From NCBI GenBank assembly GCA_913055745.1, contig CAJXJZ010000002.1, positions 57,564 through 121,563 on the forward strand: a stretch of 64,000 bases of DNA. Reading direction: 5' to 3'. Under the pieces are notes generated by a model. It saw only the letters and a program-made list of their open reading frames with translations. It made no database searches and was not told the DNA's origin. Shown piece by piece: positions 5,731-55,873 of the stretch. This DNA comes from an uncultured bacterium (GTDB taxonomy: Bacteria; Hydrothermota; Hydrothermia; UBA1063; CAJXJZ01). The position numbers and the translations under genes were made by a program. Each line of letters opens with the position of its first letter. The first letter of the stretch is position 1.

Positions 5731-6909
5731 ATGAAACTTTTGAGGGTTATACCAGAGAGTATGCTAAGAGGTAAAAAAGTCTTTGTGCGTTGCGATTTTA
5801 ATGTGCCGTTGGAAAACGGAAAGGTCAAAGACGATACGAGGATAAAAAAGGCACTTCCTACCATAGAGTATTTGATAGAAAAAGGTGCTAAGATAACCCT
5901 TGCTTCTCATCTCGGAAGACCAAAGGGCGAAAAAAAACCAGAACTCTCCCTCTTACCTGTAGCAAAGAGATTATCAGAGCTTCTGGAAAAGGATGTTGAA
6001 TTTGCTGAAGACTGTATAGGTGATGAGGTGAGTAAAAAGATAGAGGCGCTTTCTGAAGGCGATGTTTTACTTTTGGAAAACCTACGGTTTTATAAGGGGG
6101 AAGAGAAGAATGATGAGGATTTTGCAAAAAGCCTTGCTACGCCTTTTGATGTTTACATAAATGATGCCTTTGGTACAGCACATAGAAAACACGCCTCTAC
6201 CTATGGAATGGCTAAATACTTTAATGTAAAGGGTGCAGGTTTTCTCCTTGAAAAGGAAGTGCATATGCTAACTGAGATATTGGAAAATCCAGAAAAGCCA
6301 TTTGTAGTTATCCTTGGTGGTGCGAAGGTAAAGGATAAAATAGGCATAATTGAGAATCTTTTGGACAGGGCGGATGTCTTTGTTATTGGTGGTGGGATGG
6401 CATACACATTTCTGAAGGCTACTGGTAAAAAGATAGGGAACTCGCTCTTTGATGAAAAGCATTTTGATAAGGTGAAGGAGTTTCTTGAAAAGGGCAAAGA
6501 AAAGTTTGTTTTGCCAGTGGACCATGTTGTAGTTTCATCGCTTTCGGACCTTTCAGACCTTAGGGAGGTAGAGGAGATAGAAGAGGGATATATGGGTGTT
6601 GATATTGGAAGGAAAACCATTAGATTGTTTGAGGAGAAAATAAAGAATGCAAAAACGATTTTTTGGAACGGGCCAATGGGTGTTTTTGAGAAGAATGAAC
6701 TTGCAAAAGGTACTGTGGAGATTGCAAATAGTGTAAGGGATGCAACTGGTATGGGCGCTAAAACCGTAATAGGTGGTGGTGATACTGTATCCGCCATTCA
6801 TGTTGCCCGCCTCCATGATGAGGACTTTACACATGTTTCAACAGGAGGTGGTGCAACACTGGAGTTTCTCGCTGGTATTAAATTGCCTGGTATAGAAGCC
6901 TTAGAGTGA
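5731..6909 (+). CDS. pgk: Phosphoglycerate kinase
   Basis: 392 aa, N-terminal RxDFNVP motif (VFVRCDFNVPL), hinge and nucleotide-binding GGGA…GGG motifs; AAGGAGGG RBS. Confidence 0.95.
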   Translation: MKLLRVIPESMLRGKKVFVRCDFNVPLENGKVKDDTRIKKALPTIEYLIEKGAKITLASHLGRPKGEKKPELSLLPVAKRLSELLEKDVEFAEDCIGDEVSKKIEALSEGDVLLLENLRFYKGEEKNDEDFAKSLATPFDVYINDAFGTAHRKHASTYGMAKYFNVKGAGFLLEKEVHMLTEILENPEKPFVVILGGAKVKDKIGIIENLLDRADVFVIGGGMAYTFLKATGKKIGNSLFDEKHFDKVKEFLEKGKEKFVLPVDHVVVSSLSDLSDLREVEEIEEGYMGVDIGRKTIRLFEEKIKNAKTIFWNGPMGVFEKNELAKGTVEIANSVRDATGMGAKTVIGGGDTVSAIHVARLHDEDFTHVSTGGGATLEFLAGIKLPGIEALE

Positions 6910-7776
6910 GTGTTGTCCACTCATATGTGCTTTGATGTTTTTAAAGTGCATCTTTGCTACATAAGGCAATTTATCTTTCCCATATTTTTTTATAAACTCT
7001 AAGATTGCCTTGTTTACATTGGAACCTGCGCCTTTTGGAAATGACATGGAGTATTCTTTTTCCATTTTCTTCAAGTGTTCTATGTAATAAAAACGCGCAA
7101 TAATAGAAGCAAGGGCTGAGGAGAGATACCGCTCCCCTTGAGATTCAATGATAAAATCCATTGTTCTCCCTTTGGAAAACATATAACTTTTTATAAAATC
7201 AGGGTTTGCAAACATATCTATTATAACAAGATGTGCCTCTTTTTTATTTAAAATGTTCTCAATTACCCTTGCATGTGCCCATGCGAGAATTCTATTTACA
7301 TTTTTCATCTTTGCATATAGTTCATTGTATTTTTTTGGTTTTATAAGAACCACATCGTATAAAAAACTTTTTTTAATGTATTCTATTTGCTCTTCTATTA
7401 CATCATCACCTAATCTCTTACTGTCTTTTATTCCCATTTCAATGAGTTTTGGGACATCATCTTTATCAACATACGCACCTGCCACAACAAGTGGTCCAAA
7501 CACATCGCCTTTGCCAGATTCATCTGTACCTATCTGTGGAAATCTGAGTCCTTCTTTGAATGCTTGTACGAGCATATTGGAGAGGGGAGCACAGAGTGGT
7601 ATGGGATAAACCAGGGTGCCTGTAGATGGGTAGAAAATGTATTTTTCTCCTTCTATTTCAAATACTTCCTGATTTTGTGACTTCTTATATGTATCTGCAA
7701 TATTGTACAAAAGGGTGCGCACTTTGGTACGCACCCTATGTGGGAGGATTATGGACCTTATCTTTCTACTTTTCAA
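6901..7776 (-). CDS. rnhC: Ribonuclease HIII (RNase HII-family catalytic domain with N-terminal TBP-like extension)
   Basis: IGTDESGKGDVFGPLVVAGAYV active-site motif, ~90 aa N-terminal extension, 291 aa; TTG start (uncertain). Confidence 0.75.
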   Translation of the reverse strand: MKSRKIRSIILPHRVRTKVRTLLYNIADTYKKSQNQEVFEIEGEKYIFYPSTGTLVYPIPLCAPLSNMLVQAFKEGLRFPQIGTDESGKGDVFGPLVVAGAYVDKDDVPKLIEMGIKDSKRLGDDVIEEQIEYIKKSFLYDVVLIKPKKYNELYAKMKNVNRILAWAHARVIENILNKKEAHLVIIDMFANPDFIKSYMFSKGRTMDFIIESQGERYLSSALASIIARFYYIEHLKKMEKEYSMSFPKGAGSNVNKAILEFIKKYGKDKLPYVAKMHFKNIKAHMSGQHSL

Positions 7777-9958
7777 TTAAAAGTTTTAATGTCCTTTTAC
7801 CAATTTTTATTATATATCTTCCAGGTGTTAATTGATTAAAAGTTAACCTATTTTCGCCTTTATGGAGTGTGACATTTCTTTGCAATGCCAGTCTGCCAGT
7901 TATGTCAAAAACCTTTATGTCTGTGTTTTTTGTTTTTGAAGATGTGAGGATAAGAGTATTTATATAATTTGTTTGTTGCTTTAGGTTTGTGTGTTCTCTT
8001 ATACCTTCGGGTGAATGAAACTCAGGTATCTTTTTAAATGTAATGTCATCAACATATATCCCATCAAAGTTGACAGACTGGTCTGTTTCCATATAAAAGC
8101 GATATTTTAGCAACTTGCCCCTGTATTTTGTAAGGTCTATTGTTACCTTATGCCAATCTGCTGTATCATTGAATGTTTTGAGTGTCTGCCATGTTGTATC
8201 ACCTATGGTCTTTACTTGAAAATATGCATAATCATACCCCTTCTCAAGGCTGTATTTAGTGTAAAAAGAAATATAGTACATTGCTGTTGTATCTTGAAGA
8301 TAGAGTGTGTCTTTAAATTCAAGATATGATGTGTCGTTGTCATTATAGTTTCCACCCTTTGAGTCTGTGATGGAATGATATTGAGAATGGTAATCTTCAC
8401 TTGTTGTATCCCAGTGATTTGTCATAAAGTCAGAAAATCCGTTTTCAAAATCACATTGAAAAATAGGATTTATATTGCCTATAATGAGTTTTACCTCTTT
8501 TGTAGCATTGTAGTAAGGTGAAGAGACATTAAAATACATGGCTATCCATCCAGGTTCAAATGTATCAGGAAGCGTGAAGGTAAAGGAGAAAAAGGTATCG
8601 TTTTTATTGGGTAGTATGCCAAGATTGGATATGTTAAAACTTGATGGAGTTGCATCAGTTATGCCATACCTCATAAGGCTATCTGTAATAATGGACACAT
8701 TGCCACCTGTAAATTGGGAAGTTGCAGAGAGGTTTTCAATACGCACGCTGTGGGTTACACTATTTAGTGAGTCTGCGTCGTTGTTTTCAATTGCCAACCA
8801 CATACCGGCCATTTTTGCAAGAAGCATATTAAGAGGAATATTCTCGTTTATTTGTTCTAAGATAATGGATGTATCGGGTTGCCAAAAATCCTCTCCTACT
8901 TCTGCTGTATAGGCTAAAATCTTTGGGTGGGATGAATCACTGTACCACCAATCCATTGTGACACCGTTGGCATTGTATAGTAGTTCACCAGGCCTCCCTA
9001 TGGCATAACCATTAGATGCTGTAAGTCTTCTTGCAAATGCCCTCAATGTGGCATCATCTTCTGCCTCTATGTTGTCATAACCCCATGGAAACATCAAAAG
9101 GTTTGAATATGTGTGATAGTCTATAGCAACCTTTGGTTGAATGCTGTCTGTGAAATCCCTTATAGATTCTGACTCCGGTTCTGAGAATGGTGCTGGTCCT
9201 CTATAGGTGGCGGAAGAGGGATCAGGAGATGAACCTGTATCATCGTATCCCCATTGATAACTAAAGTTTCTATTTAAATCCACACCATCATCCGACTCTT
9301 CAAATATCCCATCATTATCGTTATCTCTTTTGTTCTTTCTCCAGTATCCGTCTGATGATTCGTTATACACATATCCGTCTGGATTTACAACAGGTATAAA
9401 ATAAAGTCTTCTGGAGTTTAGTACTTCAGTAACATCTGGGTCTTTACCATAGTTTCTTACAAGATACCACAAAAATCCGAACAAAGTGGATACTCCACCT
9501 GGTTCCCTTGCGTGAATACAAGCCTCGTACAAAACCGCAGGCCTTGCATCTTCATTTCCATCAAAATGAGTTGCCTCAATTGCCCATATATTTCTTCCTT
9601 CATAGGTTGTTCCAATGGAAAACTTTTGGCCTATAATATTTGGATAGAGATTGTGTAGTTTATCAAGTTCTGACACAGCCTCCTCGTATGTATAATATGG
9701 CCCAAAGTCTTTTTTAAACGGTGATTTATCCCACCATGCTTTTGTATCCTTTATTACATAAGTAAACTTCATTTTTAGTTTATCCGGATTTCTGGTATAT
9801 ATAAGAGCCTCATTACTTTTTTTATCGTAATGAATAATATCGTACCCAGACTTAAGCAGCCCTAAAAGTTCTTCTTGAGAACTTAGTTTTACTTTTACAA
9901 GGCTGTTTGCAAATAGCGTAATAGGTAAGAGAATGAATAATATGGTTTTATATTTCAT
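7766..9958 (-). CDS. Secreted zinc carboxypeptidase (peptidase M14) with C-terminal beta-sandwich domains and T9SS-type C-terminal sorting domain
   Basis: Signal peptide MKYKTILFILLPITLFANS; M14 motifs YEACIHAREPGG (HxxE), IDYHTYSNLLMFPWGY (His196 region), YTAEVGE (catalytic Glu); C-terminal ~80 aa matches T9SS CTD pattern (KVFDITGRLALQ…GRYIIKIG). ATG at 9956-9958 with AAGGAG RBS preferred over upstream GTG. Confidence 0.8.
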   Translation of the reverse strand: MKYKTILFILLPITLFANSLVKVKLSSQEELLGLLKSGYDIIHYDKKSNEALIYTRNPDKLKMKFTYVIKDTKAWWDKSPFKKDFGPYYTYEEAVSELDKLHNLYPNIIGQKFSIGTTYEGRNIWAIEATHFDGNEDARPAVLYEACIHAREPGGVSTLFGFLWYLVRNYGKDPDVTEVLNSRRLYFIPVVNPDGYVYNESSDGYWRKNKRDNDNDGIFEESDDGVDLNRNFSYQWGYDDTGSSPDPSSATYRGPAPFSEPESESIRDFTDSIQPKVAIDYHTYSNLLMFPWGYDNIEAEDDATLRAFARRLTASNGYAIGRPGELLYNANGVTMDWWYSDSSHPKILAYTAEVGEDFWQPDTSIILEQINENIPLNMLLAKMAGMWLAIENNDADSLNSVTHSVRIENLSATSQFTGGNVSIITDSLMRYGITDATPSSFNISNLGILPNKNDTFFSFTFTLPDTFEPGWIAMYFNVSSPYYNATKEVKLIIGNINPIFQCDFENGFSDFMTNHWDTTSEDYHSQYHSITDSKGGNYNDNDTSYLEFKDTLYLQDTTAMYYISFYTKYSLEKGYDYAYFQVKTIGDTTWQTLKTFNDTADWHKVTIDLTKYRGKLLKYRFYMETDQSVNFDGIYVDDITFKKIPEFHSPEGIREHTNLKQQTNYINTLILTSSKTKNTDIKVFDITGRLALQRNVTLHKGENRLTFNQLTPGRYIIKIGKRTLKLLIEK

Positions 9959-9963
9959 TGTTC

Positions 9964-11100
9964 TCACTCCTTTACAATACTTTTCCCTTCTATATAGACT
10001 TGGGTAGCCTCAGTCTTTATGTCAAAAGGATGTCCTGACCAAATAACAAAATCAGCGTCTTTTCCTCTCTCAAGACTTCCAACGCTTTTATCTATGCCGA
10101 GTAGTATGGCAGGATTGATGGTTATGGATTTTAATGCATCCAATTCATCCATCCCCTCTTTATGTGCAAGTGCTGCATATAGATTAAGGTATTTTATAGG
10201 CGTAAATGGATGGTCACTTGTTATTGCCACAGTTAGGCCATTTTTGCTTAAAATACCAGGGTTTTTAAAGGAGTTATGTTTAAGTTCAACCTTCCATGGG
10301 AAGTACATGTGTGGACCTGATATGCAACCTATAAGGTTTTTCACACCCTTTATTTCCTCTGTGGCAAGATGCCCTTCTGTGCAGTGGTCAATGATTATTG
10401 AAAGATCAAATTCCTCTGCTATTCTCAATGCGGTTAGAATATCGTCTTTTCTATGTGCGTGTGCCCTTACAGGTATTTCTTTTTTTAAGGCAAGGCATAG
10501 AGTTTCATACTCAGTGTTTTTCTCTTTCCCTCTTCTTTTATTACAGTATGTCTTCGCCTTATAAAATGCTTCCCTTATAATAGCCGCTATTGCCATCCTT
10601 GTAATAGGTTTTTTGCCTTTTGCCCCATAAGTACTCTTAGGATTCTCTCCAAAGGACAATTTAAGCCCTGCCACTTCTTTTAGTACCATATCTTTTAAGT
10701 ATCCTTCTTTTAATTTTACAACTGCCCCAATGCCTGCAATGGGATTAGAACTTCCTGGTGTAATGTAGACTGTTGTTATACCAGAGGACCTTGCCTCTTT
10801 AATTGCGGCATCCATAGGATAAAAACCATCTATGGCTCTTATGTCTGGTGTGCTTGGATTTGTGCTCTCATTCAGGTCTGCATAATCCTTACCTGCGCCT
10901 TCTTCTACCATTCCAAGATGGGTATGGGCATCCACAAGCCCTGGCGTAATAAATCTATCTTTTACATTGATAACTTCTACATTCTTGGGTATCCTTCTTC
11001 TCCTCAATACCTTTTTTATCTTGCCTTCATCTATTATCAATGTACCATTATAAAGCCATTCTTTCCCTGTAAAAATCTTTGCGCCAACAAATGCCTTCAT
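9964..11100 (-). CDS. Amidohydrolase-superfamily protein, paralog A (COG1228-like, imidazolonepropionase/dipeptidase-related); intact metal ligands
   Basis: HxH motif GLVDAHTHLGM, later RAHAHR, DHCTEGH, ITSDHPF; 378 aa; GGAGGG RBS. Confidence 0.8.
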   Translation of the reverse strand: MKAFVGAKIFTGKEWLYNGTLIIDEGKIKKVLRRRRIPKNVEVINVKDRFITPGLVDAHTHLGMVEEGAGKDYADLNESTNPSTPDIRAIDGFYPMDAAIKEARSSGITTVYITPGSSNPIAGIGAVVKLKEGYLKDMVLKEVAGLKLSFGENPKSTYGAKGKKPITRMAIAAIIREAFYKAKTYCNKRRGKEKNTEYETLCLALKKEIPVRAHAHRKDDILTALRIAEEFDLSIIIDHCTEGHLATEEIKGVKNLIGCISGPHMYFPWKVELKHNSFKNPGILSKNGLTVAITSDHPFTPIKYLNLYAALAHKEGMDELDALKSITINPAILLGIDKSVGSLERGKDADFVIWSGHPFDIKTEATQVYIEGKSIVKE

Positions 11101-11109
11101 TTTACCCTC

Positions 11110-12273
11110 CTATATCACAACACTTTGATGTTTTTTAAGGTCAAATACTATATCACCATTAATGACAGTGTATAACACCTTGTGTAATGGGTTTAAGATG
11201 GATATGTCTGTTATTACAATGTCTGCTTCTTTTCCTTTTTCTATACTCCCTATTTTATCGTCCACCCCGAGTATTTTTGCCGCATTAATCGTCATTGCCT
11301 TTATTGCCTCAAAAGAAGGCAGCCCCTCTCTTATGGCAAATGTTGCCTCAAGTGGAAGGGTATATATGGGTATAACAGGTGCGTCTGTTATAAAGGCAAA
11401 GAGAACATCGTGGTCGTAGAGCACTTTGGCGGTCTTAAATGTTATGTTCTTAAGTTCCTGCTTAATCTTTGTTGATATTGATGGACCGAGGGCACATGGT
11501 ATATGTTTTTCTTTTAAAAAATCTGCAATTAGATGTCCCTCTGTGCAGTGTTCTATGACAAATGAAAGGCCAAACTCGTTCATTATTCTCCATGCTGTTA
11601 TAATATCATCCGCCCTGTGTGAATGAATCCTTGCAGGGTATTTTTTCTGAAATACACCAACGATTGCCTCATTTTTGATGTCTATTTGCCCTTTCTTAGC
11701 CTTCTCTCTCTTTTTGAGATAGTTCTCTGCCTCTTTTAATGCCTTTTTAGCGATGTATGCATTGCCAAGCCTTGTAGATGGCATCATTTTTTTATGAGAG
11801 TAAACCCTTTTTGGGTTTTCTCCAAAAGCCATTTTAAGACCAGATGGTTCTTTTACAATCCTATCCTTTAGCGTTTTTCCGTAAGTTTTTACAGCGACTC
11901 CCAGACCACCTATAATATTTGCGCTTCCAGGGAAGATATTGACTGTTGTAATACCATTGGCATATGCATCAAAAAAGGCAGGGTCATCTGGATTTATGGC
12001 ATCTAAGGCATGAAGATGTGGGGTTATAGGCTCTGAGTATTCATTGCCATCTGCACCAGCCCATCCTGTGTTCTCTTCATATATGCCAAGATGTGTGTGT
12101 ATGTCAATGAGACCTGGATAGACATTAAGGCCCTGTATATTAATTACCTTAGCATCAGGATGATTGATGCGCTCACCTATATCTATAATGATACCATCCT
12201 TTATTAATATATCCCCTTTAAATGTTCCCCTATCTGATACACTATGGATAATGCCACCTTTAAAGAGTATCAT
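11110..12273 (-). CDS. Amidohydrolase-superfamily protein, paralog B
   Basis: GLIDIHTHLGI, RIHSHR, EHCTEGH, FITDAP; 387 aa; colinear with paralog A; GGGGGGAG RBS; ATGA overlap with upstream paralog C. Confidence 0.8.
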   Translation of the reverse strand: MILFKGGIIHSVSDRGTFKGDILIKDGIIIDIGERINHPDAKVINIQGLNVYPGLIDIHTHLGIYEENTGWAGADGNEYSEPITPHLHALDAINPDDPAFFDAYANGITTVNIFPGSANIIGGLGVAVKTYGKTLKDRIVKEPSGLKMAFGENPKRVYSHKKMMPSTRLGNAYIAKKALKEAENYLKKREKAKKGQIDIKNEAIVGVFQKKYPARIHSHRADDIITAWRIMNEFGLSFVIEHCTEGHLIADFLKEKHIPCALGPSISTKIKQELKNITFKTAKVLYDHDVLFAFITDAPVIPIYTLPLEATFAIREGLPSFEAIKAMTINAAKILGVDDKIGSIEKGKEADIVITDISILNPLHKVLYTVINGDIVFDLKKHQSVVI

Positions 12274-13406
12274 ATCTCCCCCCTTATTACAATTTCACCC
12301 TCAATCATTGTCCATACAGCCTTTGCCCTGAAGTCCATTGGATCCCCATCAAAGGCAACAATGTTGGCTATCTTGCCTTCTTCAATATTTCCCATATCCG
12401 AAAGACCAAAGATCTCGTATCCTGTGCTGGCAATGGATTTTAGTGCCTCCCATTTAGAGAGGCCTGCCTTATGTGCCAACATAGCCAAAAATCTCAATAT
12501 TTTTACAGGATTTTCGCTCTGTGCATGGGAGAGGGCAAATTTTATTCCATAATCTTTCAATATTTTACACGTCCTAAAAGTAGTATTTTTGGTTTCTGGG
12601 TCTTTACCTGCTCTCATAAGTGGTCCTAAGATGCAAGGTATTTCATATTTTTTTATAAGTTCTGGGATAAGATGGGCCTCTTCGCATCCAGAAAGTATCA
12701 ATAAAAAACGGAATTCTTCCTTAAGCATTATAGCCCTTTCTATATCTTCCCTCCTATGGACATGTATTAAAAGTGGTATCTCTTTTTTTAGCACTTTTAA
12801 AAGAAGTTTGAGGTCTTGTTTAGAACTATCCCTTTTCTTTTCTGGCCTTTTCATATAATTTCTTGCCTCTTCTAACTTTCTTCTCAAAAGTGCGTAGGCA
12901 TACATCTTTGTATTTATCTTATCCTCGCTGTGGTAGGACATAATCTCTCGTGTTAGATTTACCTTTAAGCATGCAGGCTCCTTTATGAGGAGTTCACCTA
13001 TAGAATCCCCATAAGTTTTTATAATACTACCTGCGCCTGCAATAATATTGGCAAAGCCTGGCATAACACATGCTGTTGTAATCCCCCAGGATAGAGATTC
13101 CTTTATTGCAGGGTCTTGTGGATGTATGGCATAAGATGGGAGCATATAAGGTGTTATAATAGAAGATGTTTCATCAAGGTCAAATTCTCTAAAGCCCACA
13201 CCATCTTCTGCTATCCCCAAAAAGGTATGTGGCTCTATCATCCCGTACATAAGGTAAAGTCCGTTGGCATCTACCACATTTTCATCTCGTAGGCCTTTGC
13301 CGATTTGACTTATTCTACCATCGGTGATTTCAATATCACCTTCTTTTATCTTTTCCTCAGAAAAATCAAGGTATTTGGCATTTTTAATAACCACTTTCGC
13401 CTCCAT
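12270..13406 (-). CDS. Amidohydrolase-superfamily protein, paralog C with degenerate metal-binding residues (HxH->HTF, HCTEGH->GCEEAH)
   Basis: Colinear with paralogs A/B but GMIEPHTFLG, LIHVHR, SGCEEAH, LSHAQSE; ATG at 13404-13406 (track ORF extends to TTG 13424). Confidence 0.7.
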   Translation of the reverse strand: MEAKVVIKNAKYLDFSEEKIKEGDIEITDGRISQIGKGLRDENVVDANGLYLMYGMIEPHTFLGIAEDGVGFREFDLDETSSIITPYMLPSYAIHPQDPAIKESLSWGITTACVMPGFANIIAGAGSIIKTYGDSIGELLIKEPACLKVNLTREIMSYHSEDKINTKMYAYALLRRKLEEARNYMKRPEKKRDSSKQDLKLLLKVLKKEIPLLIHVHRREDIERAIMLKEEFRFLLILSGCEEAHLIPELIKKYEIPCILGPLMRAGKDPETKNTTFRTCKILKDYGIKFALSHAQSENPVKILRFLAMLAHKAGLSKWEALKSIASTGYEIFGLSDMGNIEEGKIANIVAFDGDPMDFRAKAVWTMIEGEIVIRGEI

Positions 13407-13430
13407 GTTCCTATTGCTAATCAATAAAAA

Positions 13431-13459
13431 AGTATAAGGTTTTTATAAAGTAAAATCAA
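13431..13459 (-). promoter_or_regulatory. Sigma70-like promoter TTGATT-17-TATACT for the amidohydrolase/M14 operon
   Basis: Minus strand: TTGATT (rc 13454-13459), 17-nt spacer, TATACT (rc 13431-13436); leader ~20 nt with AGGAA before ATG 13406. Confidence 0.4.
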
Positions 13460-13533
13460 TTTAGAGTGCTATAATTTGATTATAAAAATTTTGAGTTAGA
13501 AAATTTACTTTATGCCGTTGGCTATCTTTAAAC

Positions 13534-13562
13534 TTGATTTTTGGCGTTGAATACATTATAAT
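13534..13562 (+). promoter_or_regulatory. Sigma70-like promoter TTGATT-17-TATAAT for the TPR/GGDEF-like gene (divergent from amidohydrolase promoter)
   Basis: TTGATT 13534-13539, 17-nt spacer, TATAAT 13557-13562; predicted TSS ~13569, i.e. 2-3 nt before first ATG (13572). Confidence 0.4.
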
Positions 13563-13571
13563 TTTAAGACG

Positions 13572-14468
13572 ATGCTACTTAATTCAAGAGAACTTGCGCG
13601 GAAAAAGAGAGAGATGCTTAAATTATTTTATGCGCGGAATTTTGTTAAAGCACTTCAGTTATACGAAGAAATCCTTGTTTACATAGAGAGTGACGCAGAG
13701 ATGCGAAAGATAGGTGGAGATTTGTATCTCGCTGTTGGCAATACATCTTTGGCACTTGGTGAATATCGTAAAGCGCTCCAATTATGGATGGAAGGGGCAA
13801 ATTATGAACGAGCAAGGGTCCTTGCTCAGAAGATAGCCCATCTTGCACCAGATGACCTTGATATCCATTCTACAGTGGCTGAAATATACTTGAAAAAAGG
13901 AGATACAAAGCGTGCGGTTCTGGAAATGTCAAAATATGTAGATAAAGCCCTCGCTCAAGGGAAAAAAGACCTTGCCAAGTTTATGCTTGAGAGGATTAGA
14001 AGGCGTGGCCTTACAGAGTATTTACCTGATAGGCTTAAGCAACTTCTTGGAATAAATCAGGATATTGAAAAATACTTTGAAGAAGTAAAATTGGAGCCTG
14101 AATATAAGCATTTCAATGTATATTTAAGAAAAGAAATTGCACGTGGAAATAGGTATAATCGCAGCTTTAGTTTTATTCTTATACACAGGAATAGGGAAAA
14201 AGCATTTGATACTCTGGAAAAAAATACTATAAGAGAGATCCTCACCGAAGCATTAAGAGAAGCAGATATATTCTTTATTGGTGATAAATGGTTATTCGTT
14301 CTTTTGCCTGAAACAAATAAATATGGTGCCATGCATGTGTATGATAGATTAAAGGAAGTATTAGGTGAGCAATTTCTTGATTTGAGATTTTTCCTTGCCA
14401 ATTTCCCTGATGATGGTCTTTCAGACAGTGAACTTATAAAAAAGGCTCTTACATATCAAGAGATTTAG
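13572..14468 (+). CDS. TPR-like repeat protein with C-terminal degenerate GGDEF (diguanylate-cyclase-like) domain, GGEEF replaced by GDKW
   Basis: N-terminal helical TPR-like repeats; C-terminal region RYNRSFSFILIHRNR…FIGDKWLFVLLPETN…AMHVYDRLKE follows the GGDEF domain pattern (RxxRYxxxFSLxMxDxD… GGEEFxxLLPxT) but lacks the GG(D/E)EF active site. Alternative start ATG 13614 with purine-rich RBS. Confidence 0.55.
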   Translation: MLLNSRELARKKREMLKLFYARNFVKALQLYEEILVYIESDAEMRKIGGDLYLAVGNTSLALGEYRKALQLWMEGANYERARVLAQKIAHLAPDDLDIHSTVAEIYLKKGDTKRAVLEMSKYVDKALAQGKKDLAKFMLERIRRRGLTEYLPDRLKQLLGINQDIEKYFEEVKLEPEYKHFNVYLRKEIARGNRYNRSFSFILIHRNREKAFDTLEKNTIREILTEALREADIFFIGDKWLFVLLPETNKYGAMHVYDRLKEVLGEQFLDLRFFLANFPDDGLSDSELIKKALTYQEI

Positions 14469-18700: not shown

Positions 18701-19600
18701 ATGAGCATTTTTAAAGACATTGAAGTCAGTGAGAAGTTCTTTTTGAGAAATCTTGAAGTATATCCGTTGAGATATACCAAAGGGAATGGGAGTATTTATG
18801 TGTCCCTTGATGAAGCATTAAGGGATGGTACAGCCAAGGTAAAGGATGTCTATGGGGTAAATGCTATTGGTGTATTAAACATAAATGACAGGCCCCTTTT
18901 AATGCTTGAGGGAGAGAGTCTACAAGGTGCCAGGCAGGATAGGATTGTGAATGTCACAAGTATCTTAGAACCTGAGGTTGAAACAGTTTTACCGGTGAGT
19001 TGTGTTGAACAAAACAGGTGGCAAGGGGCAAGTGATTTTTCCACTTCTTTGACTCTTGCTTTTCCTTCCCTAAGAAGCATTTTACGTAGTTCTGTATATA
19101 ATAGTCTCAAAGCGAGCAAAAAAATGGAATCTGACCAGAGTGCTATTTGGGAGGAGGTAAAGAAGACCTTAACCGTTACACATACGAGAAGCGAAACACT
19201 ATCCATGCATGATGCTTACGCCTCTTTAAAAGAAGATATACAAAGGTATGTAAGTGAGCGTGGAAACCTCAGGAATATGCATGGCTATATGGTTTTTATT
19301 GAAGAAGGACTTGTATCACTTGATGTATTTGCATCCTCTGAACTTTTAAAAAAGTACGAGAGGAAACTCTTTGAAAGTTATGCCATGCAAGGGATGCTCT
19401 ATATCTATGGGCAAAAGGACCTGAAAAAAGTCAAATTAGACCCTAAGGACTTGGATATGCTTGATTCCGTTGACTTTGAAGATTTTCAGTTGATGGAAAC
19501 GGTATATGAAAAAAGGTATAGGGGCGATTTTCTGATAAATGTAACCTTTAATAAAAATAATGAGTTTGTTTATGCTTCCGTAGTTCCATCGCATAGTTAA
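18701..19600 (+). CDS. Hypothetical protein, 299 aa
   Basis: ATG with AGAGGAG RBS; no family recognised by eye. Confidence 0.55.
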   Translation: MSIFKDIEVSEKFFLRNLEVYPLRYTKGNGSIYVSLDEALRDGTAKVKDVYGVNAIGVLNINDRPLLMLEGESLQGARQDRIVNVTSILEPEVETVLPVSCVEQNRWQGASDFSTSLTLAFPSLRSILRSSVYNSLKASKKMESDQSAIWEEVKKTLTVTHTRSETLSMHDAYASLKEDIQRYVSERGNLRNMHGYMVFIEEGLVSLDVFASSELLKKYERKLFESYAMQGMLYIYGQKDLKKVKLDPKDLDMLDSVDFEDFQLMETVYEKRYRGDFLINVTFNKNNEFVYASVVPSHS

Positions 19601-19637: not shown

Positions 19638-20627
19638 ATGTTAAATATACCAACACATCTAAAGGGTAGAGACTATATAAGAACGCAGGACTGGTCAAAA
19701 GAAGATCTTTTGACTGTTATAAATGTCGCAGAGGAGTTGAAATATGCATTTAAGCACAACGAACCTACGCCTATCTTAAACAACAAGACCATATTTTTGA
19801 TGTTCTTTGACAAATCCACAAGAACAAGGAACGCATTTGAGGCTGGAATGACACAACTTGGTGGTCATGCACATTATATTGATGTATCCACTTCACAGAT
19901 TTCCCATGGTGAGAGTGCAAAGGATACGGGTATAATTCTTTCAAGATACGGTCATGGCATTGCCATAAGGCATGACCTTGTGCCCTATGAGGGCGAAAAT
20001 TATATGAGGGATATGGCTTTCTGGGCAGACAAACCCATAATAAATCTTCAGTCAGATATAGACCATCCTACCCAAACAATAGCAGACCTTATGACCATAA
20101 TGGAAAGGTTTGGTTCAAATTTAAGAGGACTCAAAGTGGCAGTTTCCTGGGCATATACCAGAAGTTATGCAAAACCTCTTTCAGTACCCCAGGGCCTTAT
20201 CATGCTTCTTACGCGCTTTGGAATGGATGTGGTGCTGGCACGTCCACCTGAGTATAAATTAATGCCAGAGATAGTTGAAATAGGAAAGAAAAATGCAGAA
20301 AGAGAGGGAGTTCGGTTTGAGATAGTAGATGATATGGAGTATGCATTTGAGAGTGCTGATATTGTTTATCCCAAGAGTTGGGGTGCACTCCATTTGTTTA
20401 ATAATCCAGAAGAGTCTTTAAAACTTGCTAAAAAGTACAAGGACTGGATTGTAGATAGCAAAAAGATGGAGATTACAAAGCCTCATTCTATTTATATGCA
20501 TTGCCTCCCCGCGGCTCGTGGTGAGGAGGTTACTGACGATGTTATAGATGGTCCGCATTCTGTAGTGTTTGATGAAGCAGAGAATCGTTTGCACACAGCC
20601 AAGGCACTTATGAGCCTGTTAATGTGA
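19638..20627 (+). CDS. Transcarbamylase of the ornithine carbamoyltransferase family, atypical substrate motif (SWG instead of SMG); specificity unknown
   Basis: Carbamoyl-phosphate motifs STRTR, HPTQ and OTC-type HCLP present; ornithine-binding DxxxSMG replaced by YPKSWGAL; 329 aa; AAGGAG RBS. Confidence 0.75.
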   Translation: MLNIPTHLKGRDYIRTQDWSKEDLLTVINVAEELKYAFKHNEPTPILNNKTIFLMFFDKSTRTRNAFEAGMTQLGGHAHYIDVSTSQISHGESAKDTGIILSRYGHGIAIRHDLVPYEGENYMRDMAFWADKPIINLQSDIDHPTQTIADLMTIMERFGSNLRGLKVAVSWAYTRSYAKPLSVPQGLIMLLTRFGMDVVLARPPEYKLMPEIVEIGKKNAEREGVRFEIVDDMEYAFESADIVYPKSWGALHLFNNPEESLKLAKKYKDWIVDSKKMEITKPHSIYMHCLPAARGEEVTDDVIDGPHSVVFDEAENRLHTAKALMSLLM

Positions 20628-44650: not shown

Positions 44651-44675
44651 AACCGCCTTTTAAGGCGGGTTTTTT
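44651..44675. terminator. Bidirectional rho-independent terminator between convergent genes
   Basis: aaaaaaCCGCCTTttAAGGCGGgtttttta: 7-bp GC-rich stem, flanked by A-run and T-run; T-run overlaps stop codon of minus-strand gene. Confidence 0.6.
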
Positions 44676-47520
44676 ATTTGGGTCTTGTTATAACTATTGG
44701 TTTGTATGCGGTTTTATGTGTTCCATCAGGCATTAACATGTCAATTTTTACTATATAATATCCTATGGGTACTGTTTTACCCTTTGCATCATCAAGTCTC
44801 CACTCGGCATTCTGGGGTCCCATCCTCCTTGCTCCATATATATCTTTTATGAGATTACCCCTTACATCGTATATTTTAAGTGAATAACTGCCATCCTGTG
44901 GGCCTTGTACATTAATAGTGCAAAAGCCCTCAGAAGTTTTATCTACCACATTTGGACTTACGGATAATGCCAGTTTTTCTGAGGTTTGGGCAGAGCGTTT
45001 TTCAATATCACTTTGGAATCTTGGTAGGACCTGGTATCCATCTGTATATGGAGCCTCGTCATCGTATTGCCCTGCTATACCCCGTATCTTCACCATATCA
45101 CCCTTTCTTAAAGAAGATACATCAATACCTGTCGTCTTATAAACATAAACGGTAATAGGTGCTGTACCGTTCCAAACAATCATGTTATACCCAGAGCCCT
45201 GAACATACGGTGAGTTGTCCAAAACACCTTCAAAACTCACTAAGGCGCCCTCAATGCTTTCCCATATACCATGTGATTTGCCTATATCTATGGGTTGTGG
45301 GGGGCTTGTGTGACCTACATAAACTATGTCATCCTCACTTTCTGGCACTATTTCAGTAAGGCCATTGTATTCTGTTACAGTGCCTTTTACAATAACAACA
45401 TCTCCTGTATCAAAACTCTGAATAGGTGAGTGATAAAATACCTCAATACCAGAGGAGTCATCCTGTATCCAGAGGTTCGTCTTAGTAGTGGAAAATTTGG
45501 CATTGGGCCCTACCACGATACCACCAACGGTGAAGGTCTTACCTGTATCTTCTGGTGTTACACCATCTTCACCAGGTTTTTGTACTTCAGAAATTGGCGT
45601 TGTGACATATAGTCTAAATGGGCTTTGTAACATTTCTTGAAGGTGTAGAGTATCTGTTTCTGATGTTTTCACAGTTATCTGAAGCGTTCCCTCTGTATCT
45701 GGTGCAATGATGTTAACACCCACCTTAACAGTGTCTTTTGTGAAGTTGTATAGAGTTAAATGGTAGTACTGGTCTATGGTGTAACTTGCACCTAAAACTG
45801 TAATACTGCTTGTGTCCGCCCATGTATCAAAGAAAAATCTTGCAGCATTTAGATTGGATAGGTCTTTTGTTAGTAAGAATGTAACATGCGTATTATCACC
45901 TTTATGAAGATAAGGAGGTTGTATTGAGAGTTTTCCAGAGCCATCTCCTGCTGCATTTATATCCCGAATGCCCCTTGGAACTATTTGATATCCTTCAAAA
46001 TATCCGTTGCTTGAGTCAGGATCGTATTGTGAGATTACACCTTTTATGGTCATCTCACCTCGGGGAATGGGCTTTCCCACAAGGTCACAAGATGGGTCAA
46101 CATATAGGGTATAACTTCCGGTCCCATCAGAAATGGGTATTGTAGAGCCCGATTGAAAACTTGTAGATGTTGTTGTAACATGGTTGATTTCAACAAACAT
46201 CCCCTCATACGCTTCACCACCCTGGGCAAGAGCCTCGCATGTTGTAACCCTGGGATAAACATTGTGCCCTGGGTCCTGGTATAAGAGGGTAGCATTGTCA
46301 AGCTCAACTACGCCGTTGTATTCAGTTACATACCCTGTAATAATAACACTGTCTCCTTGCAAAGGTGGAGTTACAGGGTCGTATAATACAACACCTCCTG
46401 TATTATCCTGCATATAGTATTTCTTACCAAAATCACCTGCAACAGTTACTATCCCCTGTATCTTAACGGTTTGACCAATAAATACTGAATGTCCCATCTC
46501 ATCAAGTATATGAAGGTATGAAATGGGTATGATCCTATCCCCGGGATTTACTAAGTATTTAGAGATACTTGAAACAGTTTCTGCATTATGGGTATCTTTT
46601 ACCTTGAGTTTAAAATATACATTGCTATTCTCTGGATATCTGGGTATGTAGTAAACATAAAAACTGTCATTTTCTATGTGGTTTAATGTATCAGAGCCAC
46701 TAAGTATTGAAATAGCTGTGTCAATAGTCTGAAAACTATCAAGTGAGACAAAGAGCGTATCAGAAGTTATACTATCCTGTGCATCCCTATCTACAACCTT
46801 ATATTTTACCTCAACCATTTCATCAGATGCTGGCAATTTTGGTGAGAATGAAATGAGATTGACAAATGGTGGGGTATTCATAGTATCTAATTCAACATCC
46901 TGTGCATTCCTGGGCTCAATCCTATAGTTTCCATAGGCATAATAGATTGTCCCAGTTATATTGTATTTTTCTCCAACCTGTATGCCAGTGGCTGACCATC
47001 CAAGGTCATCCACCATTAAACTATCTGTACCATCATTTACATACCATTCACCAAAAGTGTCAGGTAGAGAGGTACATATTGCGTGCTGAACTTTTACAAA
47101 AACGCCTTCAAATGCCTCATTGTTTAAACTATCACAGGTTGCTATATAGGGCTCAGGTAGTGATACACCACTTGCAAGGATATTCACTGTGTCGCCATGA
47201 AGTTCTGTAAGCCCCCTGTATTCTTCTACAAGACCTGTAACCTCAACGCTATCTCCCACTGAAACGGTGGGATTTACGCCGGTATAGACAAACACTCCAT
47301 GCCATGGGCCTGAGGCTGGATATTTTTCTTCTAATGTGAAGCCTTTTACCTTTGTATTTACATATACACCTGTCACCACTCCGTATGTGGTTATAGTTGA
47401 ATCTGCGTACGGTGATGCTGATGTGTGCCCTTGGAGTTCTTCTATTGTAATTACCTGCGCTGCATTTGCAAAGCCTATTGCAAAAAACACCAAAGCAATG
47501 TATTTAAGATAACGCATCAA
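44674..47520 (-). CDS. Large secreted repeat protein (948 aa): signal peptide, >=3 tandem OB-fold-like modules (YhcR/extracellular-nuclease-type), C-terminal T9SS-type sorting domain
   Basis: Signal peptide MMRYLKYIALVFFAIGFANA. Three repeats share the pattern G-V-VTGVY…GF-LQD/EE…GD-V-VTG-V-EY-GLTEL…EG-FV. C-terminal ~80 aa beta-sandwich (SYSLKIYDVRGNLI…YIVKI). Confidence 0.6.
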   Translation of the reverse strand: MMRYLKYIALVFFAIGFANAAQVITIEELQGHTSASPYADSTITTYGVVTGVYVNTKVKGFTLEEKYPASGPWHGVFVYTGVNPTVSVGDSVEVTGLVEEYRGLTELHGDTVNILASGVSLPEPYIATCDSLNNEAFEGVFVKVQHAICTSLPDTFGEWYVNDGTDSLMVDDLGWSATGIQVGEKYNITGTIYYAYGNYRIEPRNAQDVELDTMNTPPFVNLISFSPKLPASDEMVEVKYKVVDRDAQDSITSDTLFVSLDSFQTIDTAISILSGSDTLNHIENDSFYVYYIPRYPENSNVYFKLKVKDTHNAETVSSISKYLVNPGDRIIPISYLHILDEMGHSVFIGQTVKIQGIVTVAGDFGKKYYMQDNTGGVVLYDPVTPPLQGDSVIITGYVTEYNGVVELDNATLLYQDPGHNVYPRVTTCEALAQGGEAYEGMFVEINHVTTTSTSFQSGSTIPISDGTGSYTLYVDPSCDLVGKPIPRGEMTIKGVISQYDPDSSNGYFEGYQIVPRGIRDINAAGDGSGKLSIQPPYLHKGDNTHVTFLLTKDLSNLNAARFFFDTWADTSSITVLGASYTIDQYYHLTLYNFTKDTVKVGVNIIAPDTEGTLQITVKTSETDTLHLQEMLQSPFRLYVTTPISEVQKPGEDGVTPEDTGKTFTVGGIVVGPNAKFSTTKTNLWIQDDSSGIEVFYHSPIQSFDTGDVVIVKGTVTEYNGLTEIVPESEDDIVYVGHTSPPQPIDIGKSHGIWESIEGALVSFEGVLDNSPYVQGSGYNMIVWNGTAPITVYVYKTTGIDVSSLRKGDMVKIRGIAGQYDDEAPYTDGYQVLPRFQSDIEKRSAQTSEKLALSVSPNVVDKTSEGFCTINVQGPQDGSYSLKIYDVRGNLIKDIYGARRMGPQNAEWRLDDAKGKTVPIGYYIVKIDMLMPDGTHKTAYKPIVITRPK

Positions 47521-50087: not shown

Positions 50088-51425
50088 TTAAAGAGTCCAT
50101 TCTGTTTTATCACGACCATCCTTAACTTTGATTCCAAGTTTGTTAAGTTCATTTCTAATCATATCAGCATAAGCAAACTGTTTATCCCGGCGGAGTGCAT
50201 TTCGCACTTTTAATATAACTTCCATAATCTTATCAAGTTTTTCGGATGTTTTACTTTCTTTTGGTTCAAAACCCAAGACTTTTAAAAGGAAGGCTGGCGT
50301 ATGTGGGTCTTCTGGATGTTCTTTTATATATGAAAATATCTTTCCTATGGCCTTTGGTGTATTTAGGTCTTCATCCATGTGTTTTTCAAACTCAGATATA
50401 AGTTCTGCATTGAGTGTGGTATTTTGATAAAAATGGGCTTTGTGCATTGTATTTTCCAACTTTTTCCATGCCTCTTCAGTGCTTTTTAAAAACTCCTCTG
50501 TGTAATCCATAGGCGATCTATAGTGTTTTTGCAGGACAAACAGTCTTACTGTGTTTGGGTCGTATTCTTTTAATATGTCTTCTATAGCGAAGAATAGTCC
50601 TGTTGATTTGGACATCTTTTCCCCTTTAATCTGCATAAAACCAATATGTACCCAGTAGTTTACAAACTTTTTACCATAAGCTGCTTCAGACTGTGCAATT
50701 TCATCCTCATGATGAGGAAAGATAAGGTCCTGCCCTCCCATATGAATATCAAAGGGCTGACCGAGAAAATGGGTTGACATAGCAGAGCATTCAATATGCC
50801 ATCCTGGTCTTCCCTTACCCCACGGTGAATACCAGTATGGTTCTCCCTCTTTGTGTTGTTTCCAGAGGGCAAAATCAAATGGATTTTTCTTTTCTGGATC
50901 AGGCTCTACTCTTGCTCCTTCTTTGAGCTCATCCAGTTTCTTTCCAGAGAGTTTGCCATAGCCTTCAAATTTTGACACATCAAAATATACATTTTTTGAG
51001 GGCGTTAGATAAGCGTATCCTTTCTCTAACAGGATATTGACCAGTTCAATGATTTCTTGAATGAACTGCGTGGCTCTGGGAAAATGGTTAGCCTTCTTTA
51101 TATTGAGTTTTGATGCAGCAGAAAGATACTCATCTGTGTATCTATGACCTATATCACGCCAATCTGTTCCTTCACTATGCATTTTTTCAATGATTTTATC
51201 GTCTATATCAGTAAAATTTTGTACATAGTCAACATGATAACCTCTGTATTCTAAATACCTTCTAAGTACATCACCCACAAGGAAACTCCTTATGTGACCC
51301 AGATGTGGCCTATCCTGAACAGTCATACCGCACATGTATATGCCAACCTTGTCCCTTTTTATGGGCTTAAACTCTTCTACCTTTCGTGTTAATGTATTAT
51401 AGAGTTTCATATCATTAGCTTTCAC
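50088..51425 (-). CDS. cysS: Cysteinyl-tRNA synthetase
   Basis: HIGH (PHLGHIRSF), zinc-binding CGMT…C…, KMSKS; 445 aa. Confidence 0.95.
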   Translation of the reverse strand: MKANDMKLYNTLTRKVEEFKPIKRDKVGIYMCGMTVQDRPHLGHIRSFLVGDVLRRYLEYRGYHVDYVQNFTDIDDKIIEKMHSEGTDWRDIGHRYTDEYLSAASKLNIKKANHFPRATQFIQEIIELVNILLEKGYAYLTPSKNVYFDVSKFEGYGKLSGKKLDELKEGARVEPDPEKKNPFDFALWKQHKEGEPYWYSPWGKGRPGWHIECSAMSTHFLGQPFDIHMGGQDLIFPHHEDEIAQSEAAYGKKFVNYWVHIGFMQIKGEKMSKSTGLFFAIEDILKEYDPNTVRLFVLQKHYRSPMDYTEEFLKSTEEAWKKLENTMHKAHFYQNTTLNAELISEFEKHMDEDLNTPKAIGKIFSYIKEHPEDPHTPAFLLKVLGFEPKESKTSEKLDKIMEVILKVRNALRRDKQFAYADMIRNELNKLGIKVKDGRDKTEWTL

Positions 51426-53073
51426 TTATTTTTTTCGCAACATATTCAAATACCTTATTTGCTCGTGTTTCAACCTCATTGAGTATTTTCTTTGCCTCAT
51501 CATTGGTATGTGTAGCAAATTCCCTATCCTTTAAAGAATTCGTATTAATTATGACATTGAGATATGCCCCTTTTGCTGCAGAGAGGGCAAAGATTGCTGC
51601 AACCCCTGCATCACTAACCGAGTTTATGTTCCCCTTTTCCGCTACAACTTCTGCAAGTTCCAAAAGTTTTTGAGTCTCTCGCAAAACAGATAAAGGAACC
51701 AAAGTGGCTTCTTTTGTGGCGCTCTCAATAGCTTCTTCTCTTATCTTTTTATCTTCTTCTGTCTTCTTAGGAAGTGAGAATGCATCCATAACACGGGAAA
51801 AAGCCTCTGTGTCCTTGTCAATAAATTCAAGATACTTATCCTTAAGTTCTTGTGCTCTTTGAGCGATTTCATCCATTTCGTCCCATACTTCTTTGTATTT
51901 CTTTTTCCCAAATGTTAGATTTGCAACCATAGAAGATAGTGCGGCAGATAGAGCACCCGAGAGTGCAGAAACGCTTCCTCCACCTGGTGCAGGTGAATCT
52001 GTAGATAGTTCATCTGCAAACTCCATGAGGTTCATTCGTCTAAGTCTCTCACGAGTGGGATCTTTGAGCCTATAGTCAATTATTTTCTTCTGAGGCTCAA
52101 ATGGAGCGACATCGGAAAGCCCAAGTGATTTAATGGCAATATCAACGATTTCCTTTTCTGGTATTCCTGCTATTTTCCCCTGTTTTTTTAGGAAGTGTTT
52201 ACCTGTATCAAGAAGCGCGTCCAAAGGAACAAGACCTACAATTTCGCTCCCTGTTACCCTGAGTCCTAACTTTCGTGCTTCTTCTTCTGCTGTCTCAAAG
52301 ACTTTCCACAAAGGCGTTTCTTTATAGTTGGTAAGATTTATGGATATTTGGGCTATACCGTATTCATCAATATACCATCCTATTGCGCGTACATGTTTGA
52401 GTTTTCCGGGCACCCTTTTCTTTGTTCCATCTTCCTGTTTCACTAACTTTCCTTTTTCCCGGATCTCTTTTGCTATTTTGTGAGCCAATTTTCTGTCTTT
52501 TGTATTAAGGTTGATATTATAGGCAATGAGAAAATCACGGGCACCTATGACCATTGCACCAGATTTTGGGTTGAAAACAGCATCCCCATAGTCGGGTGCC
52601 CATTCTGGGTCTTTTAATTTTTCTTCGAGCCCTTCATATTCTCCTTTTCTTATTTCCGCAAGAGACTTTCTTTGTGGTTTGGTGGCTGAATATTCGTACA
52701 TGTACACAGGCACATGAAGCTCTTTTGCCACCCTTTCTGCTACCTCGTGGGAGAGTTTCACCACCTCTTCCATAGTAATATTTTTAACAGGAACAAATGG
52801 CACTACATCCACCGCACCGAGCCTTGGGTGCTCGCCTTTATGCTTTGTCATGTCAATGAGTTCCAAGGCCTTTTTAATTGCCCTAAATGCCGCCTCTTTT
52901 ATGCCATCGGGATCACCTGCGAATGTAACTACTGTTCTATTGGCTGCTTCTCCTGGGTCAACATCAAGGAGAACGACATTATCAACATTTTTTATCTCAT
53001 CTGTAATAGCCTTTATTACATCGGGATTTCTACCTTCACTAAAATTGGGAACGCATTCTACGATTTTATTCAT
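51415..53073 (-). CDS. ftcD: Bifunctional glutamate formimidoyltransferase / formiminotetrahydrofolate cyclodeaminase
   Basis: N-terminal VECVPNFSEGR formiminotransferase motif, C-terminal cyclodeaminase helical domain; ATG 53071-53073 with GGAGG RBS (track ORF extends spuriously over tRNA-Gln). Confidence 0.8.
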   Translation of the reverse strand: MNKIVECVPNFSEGRNPDVIKAITDEIKNVDNVVLLDVDPGEAANRTVVTFAGDPDGIKEAAFRAIKKALELIDMTKHKGEHPRLGAVDVVPFVPVKNITMEEVVKLSHEVAERVAKELHVPVYMYEYSATKPQRKSLAEIRKGEYEGLEEKLKDPEWAPDYGDAVFNPKSGAMVIGARDFLIAYNINLNTKDRKLAHKIAKEIREKGKLVKQEDGTKKRVPGKLKHVRAIGWYIDEYGIAQISINLTNYKETPLWKVFETAEEEARKLGLRVTGSEIVGLVPLDALLDTGKHFLKKQGKIAGIPEKEIVDIAIKSLGLSDVAPFEPQKKIIDYRLKDPTRERLRRMNLMEFADELSTDSPAPGGGSVSALSGALSAALSSMVANLTFGKKKYKEVWDEMDEIAQRAQELKDKYLEFIDKDTEAFSRVMDAFSLPKKTEEDKKIREEAIESATKEATLVPLSVLRETQKLLELAEVVAEKGNINSVSDAGVAAIFALSAAKGAYLNVIINTNSLKDREFATHTNDEAKKILNEVETRANKVFEYVAKKISES

Positions 53074-53094
53074 AGAACCTCCTTGGGTTGCAAA

Positions 53095-54595: not shown

Positions 54596-54605
54596 TTTTT
54601 ACCCC

Positions 54606-55871: not shown

Positions 55872-55873
55872 GG

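Follow-up and report, generated by a model that had tools for sequence, protein, structure and literature searches.

Pseudomonas PyrC' is an inactive dihydroorotase-like partner subunit. Like the dihydroorotase (DHOase)-like domain of fungal CAD (5nnl) and the latent DHOase of Aquifex in its complex with ATCase (3d6n), it has the amidohydrolase fold, has lost catalytic residues or is inactive alone, and is retained as a structural partner in a hetero-oligomer. A second point of reference is 3OOQ, a structural-genomics entry from Thermotoga maritima MSB8 whose record title is merely 'amidohydrolase'. It is encoded by a single-copy gene and assembles into a dihedrally symmetric homo-oligomer, of which the entry contains 10 chains. 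Here, we describe a gene run from an uncultured bacterium of the Hydrothermota lineage (GenBank assembly GCA_913055745.1, contig CAJXJZ010000002.1, positions 57,564 to 121,563, forward strand; this whole stretch of 64,000 nucleotides is called the window). In contrast to the single-copy 3OOQ gene, the run encodes three paralogous amidohydrolases of the 3OOQ type, C, B and A, one of which lacks the catalytic residues. We consider it somewhat more probable than all other explanations together that the triplet forms a cytoplasmic hetero-oligomeric hydrolase with C as non-catalytic subunit, co-transcribed with functionally unrelated neighbours. The DHOase-like proteins, whose fungal and Aquifex entries turned up in our structure searches, pair with the non-homologous ATCase, whereas the presumed partners of C would be its own paralogues. 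The three genes are located as follows:

12270–13391, minus strand: gene C, 373 aa from GTG 13391 (mechanical open reading frame (ORF) 12270–13424)
11110–12273, minus strand: gene B, predicted active-type 3OOQ-family amidohydrolase, 387 aa
9964–11100, minus strand: gene A, predicted active-type 3OOQ-family amidohydrolase, 378 aa

C has lost the catalytic residues retained in A and B

A, B and C are 34–40% identical in pairwise comparison (A and B 40%) and scored 84.1, 68.9 and 31.9 bits, respectively, with the Pfam amidohydrolase profile (Amidohydro_1; PF01979/PF07969; cut-off 25). A hidden Markov model of the family matched B with an E-value of 2e-180, A with 9e-180 and C with 4e-96. 3OOQ is the only full-length solved relative (E 1.6e-98 for A and 1.6e-103 for B), and the structure models of A and C superposed on it. 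By profile score and by a (beta/alpha)8-barrel preceded by an N-terminal beta-sandwich, the paralogues belong to the amidohydrolase superfamily. A search of the family profile against structures recovered 3OOQ at 7e-161, while the remaining entries reached 1e-18 or worse and matched only the generic N- or C-terminal 60–90 residues. A and B thus belong to the 3OOQ-type family by full-length match and by possession of all family residues; the match of C is also full-length, without most of these residues.

Residue conservation was assessed with 82 single-copy family members as a reference (Clostridia, Bacilli, Arthrobacter, Thermotogae, Chloroflexota and others). H59, K147, K155, R168, H214, H216, T241, D296 and D350 were invariant in all 82 proteins, and H61, E152, N153 and H239 were each retained in 81. 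A and B contain all 13 conserved residues, including the metal-binding and catalytic set H59 and H61 (HxH, strand 1), K147 (strand 4), H214 (strand 5), H239 (strand 6) and D296 (strand 8). In C, H61 is replaced by F, H239 by G and D296 by A. Moreover, E152, N153, K155, T241 and D350 are missing and the FGENPK motif is gone. The loss of H61, H239 and D296 was found in all six lineages in which C was compared. Degeneration of the C orthologues in the five further lineages was equal or greater, with K147 as the sole universal residue, and C of the Hydrothermia has lost both HxH motifs. An intact ORF was present in every lineage examined. We read A and B, in which the HxH motif and the Lys, His, His and Asp expected around two metal ions are complete, as predicted active cytoplasmic hydrolases. 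C, judged by its residues, is a pseudoenzyme member of the amidohydrolase fold.

An earlier, sequence-only reading of the locus had described four ORFs on the minus strand, namely the amidohydrolases and the M14 gene behind them, and their positions and spacing were found as described. The three amidohydrolases are indeed co-linear paralogues without signal peptides, and the proposed ligand layout HTH, H(A/S)H, HCTEGH and D296 is present in both A and B. Of the sequence blocks regarded as common to the paralogues, GITT occurs in C, B and A; FGENPK is restricted to A and B, and KEIP to A and C. The ligand layout had correctly been assigned to A and B only, but the consequence for C, which lacks it, had not been drawn. 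Since C is dead in all lineages, it is not a diversified enzyme, and the suggestion that the triplication broadened the substrate range fails for this protein. Furthermore, the triplication is old and fixed in order.

The order C-B-A is conserved in six lineages

The triplet was compared in the lineages of the window and of the loci L001, L092, L091, L004 (Hydrothermia) and L010 (WOR-3). The order C-B-A was found in all six, with a C/B spacing of −16 to +1 nt and a B/A spacing of 8–10 nt. C shares 77, 63, 46, 33 and 34% identity with its orthologues. Identities across the lineages are 51–78% for A and 55–81% for B, the most conserved of the three. A distance tree separated A, B and C into three orthologue clades, each comprising the sequences of the window, L001, L004 and L010, which places the triplication before the split of the WOR-3/Hydrothermota lineages. 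As C is intact everywhere and 77, 63 and 46% identical in the nearer relatives, it is retained rather than decaying. Outside the WOR-3/Hydrothermota lineage, the gene was present as a single copy in 77 of 79 sampled loci. Co-retention of C with B and A in a fixed order, together with the fusions found elsewhere (see below), groups the triplet with enzyme/pseudoenzyme pairs.

Active and dead domains are paired elsewhere in the family

A profile of the C orthologues was searched against 1.84 billion representative proteins and gave 8080 matches. Many of the top matches have a length of 770–1500 aa, carry signal peptides and contain between two and four domains of the family. Each domain was scored as active or dead at six canonical positions. 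Three-domain proteins, some of them 1300–1500 aa long, showed the arrangement dead-active-dead, and two-domain proteins were active-dead or the reverse; altogether, dozens of active/dead fusions were found in the range of 770–1500 aa. Single-domain dead proteins occurred in at least 12 clusters. At locus L095, a single-domain dead gene and a paralogue with all active residues share an overlap of 7 nt. Locus L097 (787–8484) contains four tandem genes and a two-domain fusion, all with signal peptides, in the order active, dead, active, dead and active-dead, so that the six domains strictly alternate. Exported relatives with signal peptides that form such arrays or fusions include P0278, P0283, P0286 and P0289.

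In the distance tree, the exported dead and the exported active domains formed sister clades. Cytoplasmic dead copies (the C clade of WOR-3, the L095 clade and scattered singles) arose separately, and dead copies were found in at least three separate clades. This is evidence of the Rosetta-stone type, suggesting that dead paralogues partner physically with active ones in the family; for the proteins of the window it is an indication and not proof.

C-B-A is a three-gene module of the family typified by 3OOQ and is conserved across the WOR-3/Hydrothermota lineage. We propose that B and A would catalyse in the cytoplasm, and that C would keep the fold and join B and/or A in a hetero-oligomer derived from a 3OOQ-like dihedral homo-oligomer. 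The ATGA overlap between C and B and the strong Shine-Dalgarno (SD) sites may result in translational coupling, which would keep the subunits in proportion. Transcription from a promoter at about 13431–13459 would take in the M14 gene and rnhC, both of which we regard as probable neighbours of convenience in a compact genome. For the substrate, our best guess is an amide or cyclic amide that is small and anionic and may derive from a peptide.

Several points weigh against such an assembly. The model of C is confident (pLDDT, the predicted local distance difference test score, 86.9; template modeling (TM) score 0.93 to 3OOQ), which is partly expected because its alignment includes active relatives. 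The trees were built from distances by simple neighbour joining and carry no support values. It is possible that A and B assemble separately, each as a homo-oligomer, with C acting in regulation or having no role. Finally, peptidase genes (M14, S8, C26, M55, M29 and M20) and genes for a Dpp transporter recur near family members, making a tie to proteolysis possible.

The family is very common: its detectable relatives number more than 8000, and it is represented in Clostridia, Bacilli, Actinobacteria, Thermotogae, Chloroflexota and the Fibrobacteres-Chlorobi-Bacteroidetes (FCB) group. A crystal structure has been available since 2010, with no function assigned. Our literature search on the function of 3OOQ yielded no functional study, its sole match being a docking benchmark, and an exact look-up of protein A returned no record. 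The main interest lies in the recurrent active/dead pairing and in the wide occurrence of a family with no assigned function. If the pairs are real hetero-oligomers, the family would offer a clear natural case in which homo-oligomers became enzyme/pseudoenzyme complexes once the gene had duplicated, and assigning function from single expressed subunits could fail for such members. What is new here is modest, a variant within known kinds, as both pseudoenzyme partners of the amidohydrolase fold and M14 proteins that are cargo for a type IX secretion system (T9SS) have been described.

The triplet is probably co-transcribed with the M14 gene and rnhC

In the ORF listing, five closely packed ORFs follow each other on the minus strand in the order C, B, A, M14 and rnhC. 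The following features complete the run:

13431–13459, minus strand: probable promoter TTGATT-17-TATACT; the 5′ leader behind it is conserved and contains GGAGG (consensus scan and conservation)
7766–9958, minus strand: M14 carboxypeptidase T-like secreted protein, 730 aa, ATG at 9958 (mechanical ORF 7766–9967)
About 8846–9673, minus strand: M14 domain (Pfam/NCBIfam)
About 8039–8272, minus strand: MAM-like domain (Pfam/NCBIfam)
About 7781–7957, minus strand: T9SS type-A C-terminal domain (Pfam/NCBIfam)
6901–7776, minus strand: rnhC (RNase HIII), final gene of the co-directional run

The intergenic distances along the run are −4, 9, 5 and −11 nt. C and B overlap by the 4 nt ATGA, with GGGGGGAG just before; the 9-nt gap between B and A contains GGAGGG; the 5-nt gap between A and the M14 gene goes along with AAGGAG upstream of ATG 9958; and there is an 11-nt overlap between the M14 stop and the start of rnhC. 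This extension of the same-direction, overlapping run into rnhC had been omitted from the sequence-only reading. For C, translation more probably starts at GTG 13391, located five bases past GGAGG and kept in relatives, than at ATG 13406, which is not.

A single sigma70-like promoter had been proposed in front of the whole set. The site at 13459–13431 matches the consensus at 9 of 12 positions; as the scan found 29 promoter-like sites with 27.4 expected, a single match is not significant alone. When the upstream regions of three relatives were aligned with it, the block TTGATT-17-TATA(A/C)T proved to be conserved, as did a leader that has GGAGG-N5-GTG at its end. The block is kept in L001 and L092 despite a different upstream gene, which makes the promoter plausible. 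No terminator-like site was detected by the scan between the genes of the run, including the 5-nt gap between A and the M14 gene, where a terminator or separate promoter would have split the proposed operon. The gaps, which measure 9 nt at most, are too short to hold a terminator and, together with the conserved promoter block, make a single transcript likely. By strand, spacing and shared promoter, C-B-A-M14(-rnhC) is thus likely to be one operon.

An RNA element such as a riboswitch was considered for the region upstream of C and rejected, because the leader gave no Rfam match even at E ≤ 1; the whole window yielded six tRNAs only. In L001 (1–5700) and L092 (1–4703), the division and cell wall (dcw) genes murC-murB-ftsA-ftsZ and a radical SAM gene are located directly upstream of C. 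In the window, these genes lie 40 kb away (53474–58091) and a divergent tetratricopeptide repeat (TPR) gene (13572–14468) is found upstream of C instead. The rearrangement breakpoint is located just outside the conserved promoter block (region 13392–13571 of the window).

The M14 gene is linked to the triplet in one narrow clade only

The M14 protein starts with the Sec-type signal peptide MKYKTILFILLPITLFANS, read directly from the sequence, which is followed by a short pro-region. It matched Peptidase_M14 (PF00246) with 220.6 bits (cut-off 21.6) and also contains an InhA-like MAM domain. The T9SS tail passed TIGR04183 (24.6 bits, cut-off 23) and just missed PF18962 (25.0 bits, cut-off 27), a domain carried by the M14 orthologues P0158, P0160 and P0162. 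The closest structure is carboxypeptidase T (3qnv; E 1e-47 over 275 residues), and HARE, DLNRN, YHTYS and TAEV line up with its motifs HxxE, NR, H and E. The M14 domain thus shares the zinc and catalytic motifs of carboxypeptidase T of Thermoactinomyces vulgaris (M14A). The proposed signal-peptide-bearing M14 carboxypeptidase with a T9SS type-A domain was borne out, and the aligned motifs suggest that it is active. Components of the T9SS translocon were not recognised within the 64-kb window.

Proteins combining M14, an InhA-like MAM domain and a Por_Secre_tail were found in their hundreds in WOR-3, Hydrothermales, Latescibacterota, TA06, Chlorobi and Bacteroidales (FCB group). Compared with this T9SS cargo, the architecture of the M14 protein is the same, with nothing distinctive, and its place behind the triplet is confined to one narrow clade. 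Both the M14 gene and the layout of the operon are ordinary. The arrangement triplet-M14-rnhC was found in the window, in L001 (78% identity in A) and in L092 (74%). In L091 (57%), rnhC comes directly after the triplet, and in L004 and L010 tsaD takes this position; none of these three loci has an M14 gene there. Linkage to M14 is thus limited to relatives with at least 74% identity. Homologous M14 genes were also found in a Hydrothermales genome and in a further metagenome-assembled genome, in the latter beside a C25 T9SS peptidase, and neither context has an amidohydrolase neighbour. The simplest history is an insertion of the M14 gene between A and rnhC in one narrow clade, as a recent neighbour.

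These findings bear on a model in which the secreted M14 enzyme frees amino acids and short peptides and the cytoplasmic amidohydrolases finish dipeptides or N-acyl amino acids, all encoded in one pathway operon. Tight spacing and a shared promoter speak in its favour, and genes for peptidases or peptide transport recur beside family members in other phyla. In a neighbourhood sample of about 84 loci, Peptidase_C26 was located upstream in seven and M55 was present in four; L095 is flanked by M29 and M20 peptidase genes, and at L010 an S8 peptidase with a T9SS tail is encoded directly upstream of the triplet. A Dpp-type transporter was found near the family gene only at L039, L064 and L083. A peptide-type substrate for the family is possible, and none of the peptidase links is general. 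A cluster of ABC ATPases present at 18 loci was rejected as a link to peptide transport, because it merges all ABC ATPases and is not enriched. Large T9SS-tailed proteins are encoded just upstream of the triplet at two loci, L010 (273–4616; the S8 peptidase, 946 aa) and L091 (145–3348; 1067 aa, no other domain). Literature searches on amidohydrolases in the tsaE or general gene neighbourhood and on T9SS peptidases of WOR-3 returned nothing relevant.

As characterised COG1228 enzymes of the peptidase type, the Arg/Lys carboxypeptidase Cc2672 (3mtw), the Sgx9260-type prolidases (3feq, 3n2c), an Xaa-Pro dipeptidase (2qs8) and ochratoxin amidohydrolases (8ihq) were compared. Their sequence similarity is confined to the terminal 60–90 residues (E 1e-14 to 1e-18), and they lack the core motifs typical of the 3OOQ family. 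In the structural comparison, 3OOQ was followed by the putative prolidase 2p9b (26.6), 3feq (26.5) and Cc2672 (25.9), and then by an adenosine deaminase (25.5), HutI (25.5), CRMP (24.5) and isoaspartyl dipeptidase (24.3). The nearest structural neighbours after 3OOQ are thus COG1228 proteins of the peptidase type, by a margin too small to use. The question of whether the paralogues group with peptidase-type enzymes or with HutI and deaminases received no clear answer; they form their own family, and the characterised COG1228 peptidases, HutI and the deaminases are about equally distant from them. None of the NCBIfam equivalog thresholds was approached by the amidohydrolases: A and B scored 63 and 54.7 bits with the HutI model TIGR01224 (cut-off 298), and scores with the Caulobacter Xaa-Pro dipeptidase model NF051886 were 52–63 bits (cut-off 500). 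HutI had been considered because of an FTCD gene at 51415–53205, and is set aside by its score far below the cut-off. A DHOase had been considered because of a carbamoyltransferase gene at 19638–20627; DHOases match the generic N-terminal segment only.

Taken together, the two-compartment peptide-trimming pathway put forward in the sequence-only reading is unlikely. M14 is not a conserved partner of the triplet, being absent from the locus in L091, L004 and L010, and its homologues elsewhere are not beside amidohydrolases. C cannot be one of the diversified enzymes, and in the window neither a peptide transporter nor a cluster for amino-acid catabolism was annotated beside the run. Furthermore, rnhC is as tightly packed as M14 and has no tie to peptide breakdown, so that the same spacing logic would add RNase HIII to the pathway. 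Tight packing here joins functionally unrelated genes.

Independent proteins or a t6A-linked function are less well supported

A further possibility is that the triplet encodes three independent proteins without any assembly, A and B being homo-oligomers with different substrates and C either a relic or a protein that binds or regulates without being an enzyme. The identity between A and B is only 40%, and both have been kept as clades of their own. In the Hydrothermota, A carries the second-shell changes R217S, T241S and E242D and B is unchanged, which is consistent with distinct specificities. However, the fixed order, the overlapping stop and start codons and the strict co-retention of C over deep divergence are hard to explain in this way, and the separate dead/active pairs and fusions elsewhere in the family favour a physical partnership. 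We therefore regard three unconnected proteins as improbable and prefer the hetero-oligomer with C as its non-catalytic subunit.

The neighbourhood sample also revealed genes for synthesis of N6-threonylcarbamoyladenosine (t6A). The commonest neighbour was tsaE, which occurred at 21 loci and always on the same strand. In nine Clostridia loci (L006, L033, L035, L042, L043, L051, L061, L067 and L087), it is located directly downstream of the single-copy homologue at −11 to +20 nt. tsaB or tsaD was present at 22 loci, and the Clostridia layout downstream of the homologue is tsaE-tsaB-(rimI)-tsaD. In WOR-3 and Hydrothermia, the next gene after the triplet is tsaD, 1 nt away in L010 (8127–9116) and 7 nt away in L004 (9130–10119), so that the link to t6A genes extends across phyla. 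The family might thus have a housekeeping role in t6A synthesis, of which the triplet would be the WOR-3 version. Opening of cyclic amide or carbamate rings is typical chemistry of the amidohydrolase superfamily. Threonylcarbamoyl-AMP (TC-AMP), the labile t6A intermediate, decays to threonine and a cyclic oxazolidinone (PMC7913687). Hydrolysis of this oxazolidinone would be chemically plausible for a member of the superfamily.

The evidence for such a role comes from gene context. The Clostridia cases may represent one inherited housekeeping synteny, as Tex, rplM-rpsI, mazEF and alr are nearby. At the locus, tsa genes are missing from the clade of the window and from L091, and none of tsaD, tsaE and tsaB was found in the 64-kb window. 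Family members of Bacilli, Arthrobacter and Thermotogae have other neighbours, and a cytoplasmic job linked to tRNA is at odds with the relatives that bear signal peptides and are exported. A t6A function of the triplet is accordingly very unlikely. Equally low are the chances of a wider proposal, in which 3OOQ-type proteins would be a widespread class of obligate oligomeric hydrolases that repeatedly evolved enzyme/pseudoenzyme assemblies and serves t6A-linked housekeeping or repair, although repair by oxazolidinone opening would explain the placement upstream of tsaE in Clostridia and of tsaD in WOR-3/Hydrothermota. The recurrent adjacency to t6A genes and to peptidase genes provides two concrete substrate hypotheses.

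rnhC and other features of the window

The last gene of the run was identified as rnhC by TIGR00716 (177.5 bits, cut-off 161.2). Comparison with L001 showed a conserved N-terminus beginning at the TTG start. Its 5′ end contains the following element:

7714–7737, minus strand: GC-rich hairpin inside the rnhC 5′ end, 30 nt past the M14 stop and about 40 nt into rnhC (minimum free energy −23.2 kcal/mol, z −4.5)

The hairpin is kept in four lineages, those of the window, L001 (about 11357–11382), L092 and L091 (about 8272–8297). In L091, the stem sequence is wholly different yet perfectly complementary (GCGGCTCGCAG/CTGCGAGCCGC). The scan listed the hairpin as terminator-like; the T-tail is weak or absent in the relatives. 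An intrinsic terminator that cuts off rnhC was rejected, because the hairpin lies inside the conserved rnhC frame and the relatives have no T-tail. As there is no consistent T-tail, the hairpin may be an attenuator or a processing site; alternatively, the start of rnhC may lie further downstream.

Beyond the gene run, the window is a mosaic of housekeeping genes. The FTCD gene at 51415–53205 (minus strand) encodes a complete formiminotransferase-cyclodeaminase with the three domains FTCD_N, FTCD and FTCD_C, suggesting catabolism of histidine or formiminoglutamate; hutH, hutU and hutI were not recognised in the window. A 948-aa protein encoded at 44674–47520 (minus strand) matched DUF5689 and an OB-fold (tRNA_anti-codon) and may be a secreted nucleic-acid-binding protein or nuclease. 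At 18701–19600 (plus strand), an ARPP-1 domain protein (ARG and Rhodanese-Phosphatase-superfamily-associated; E 3.5e-61) is encoded, and its gene adjoins the carbamoyltransferase gene (19638–20627) and a NUDIX gene.

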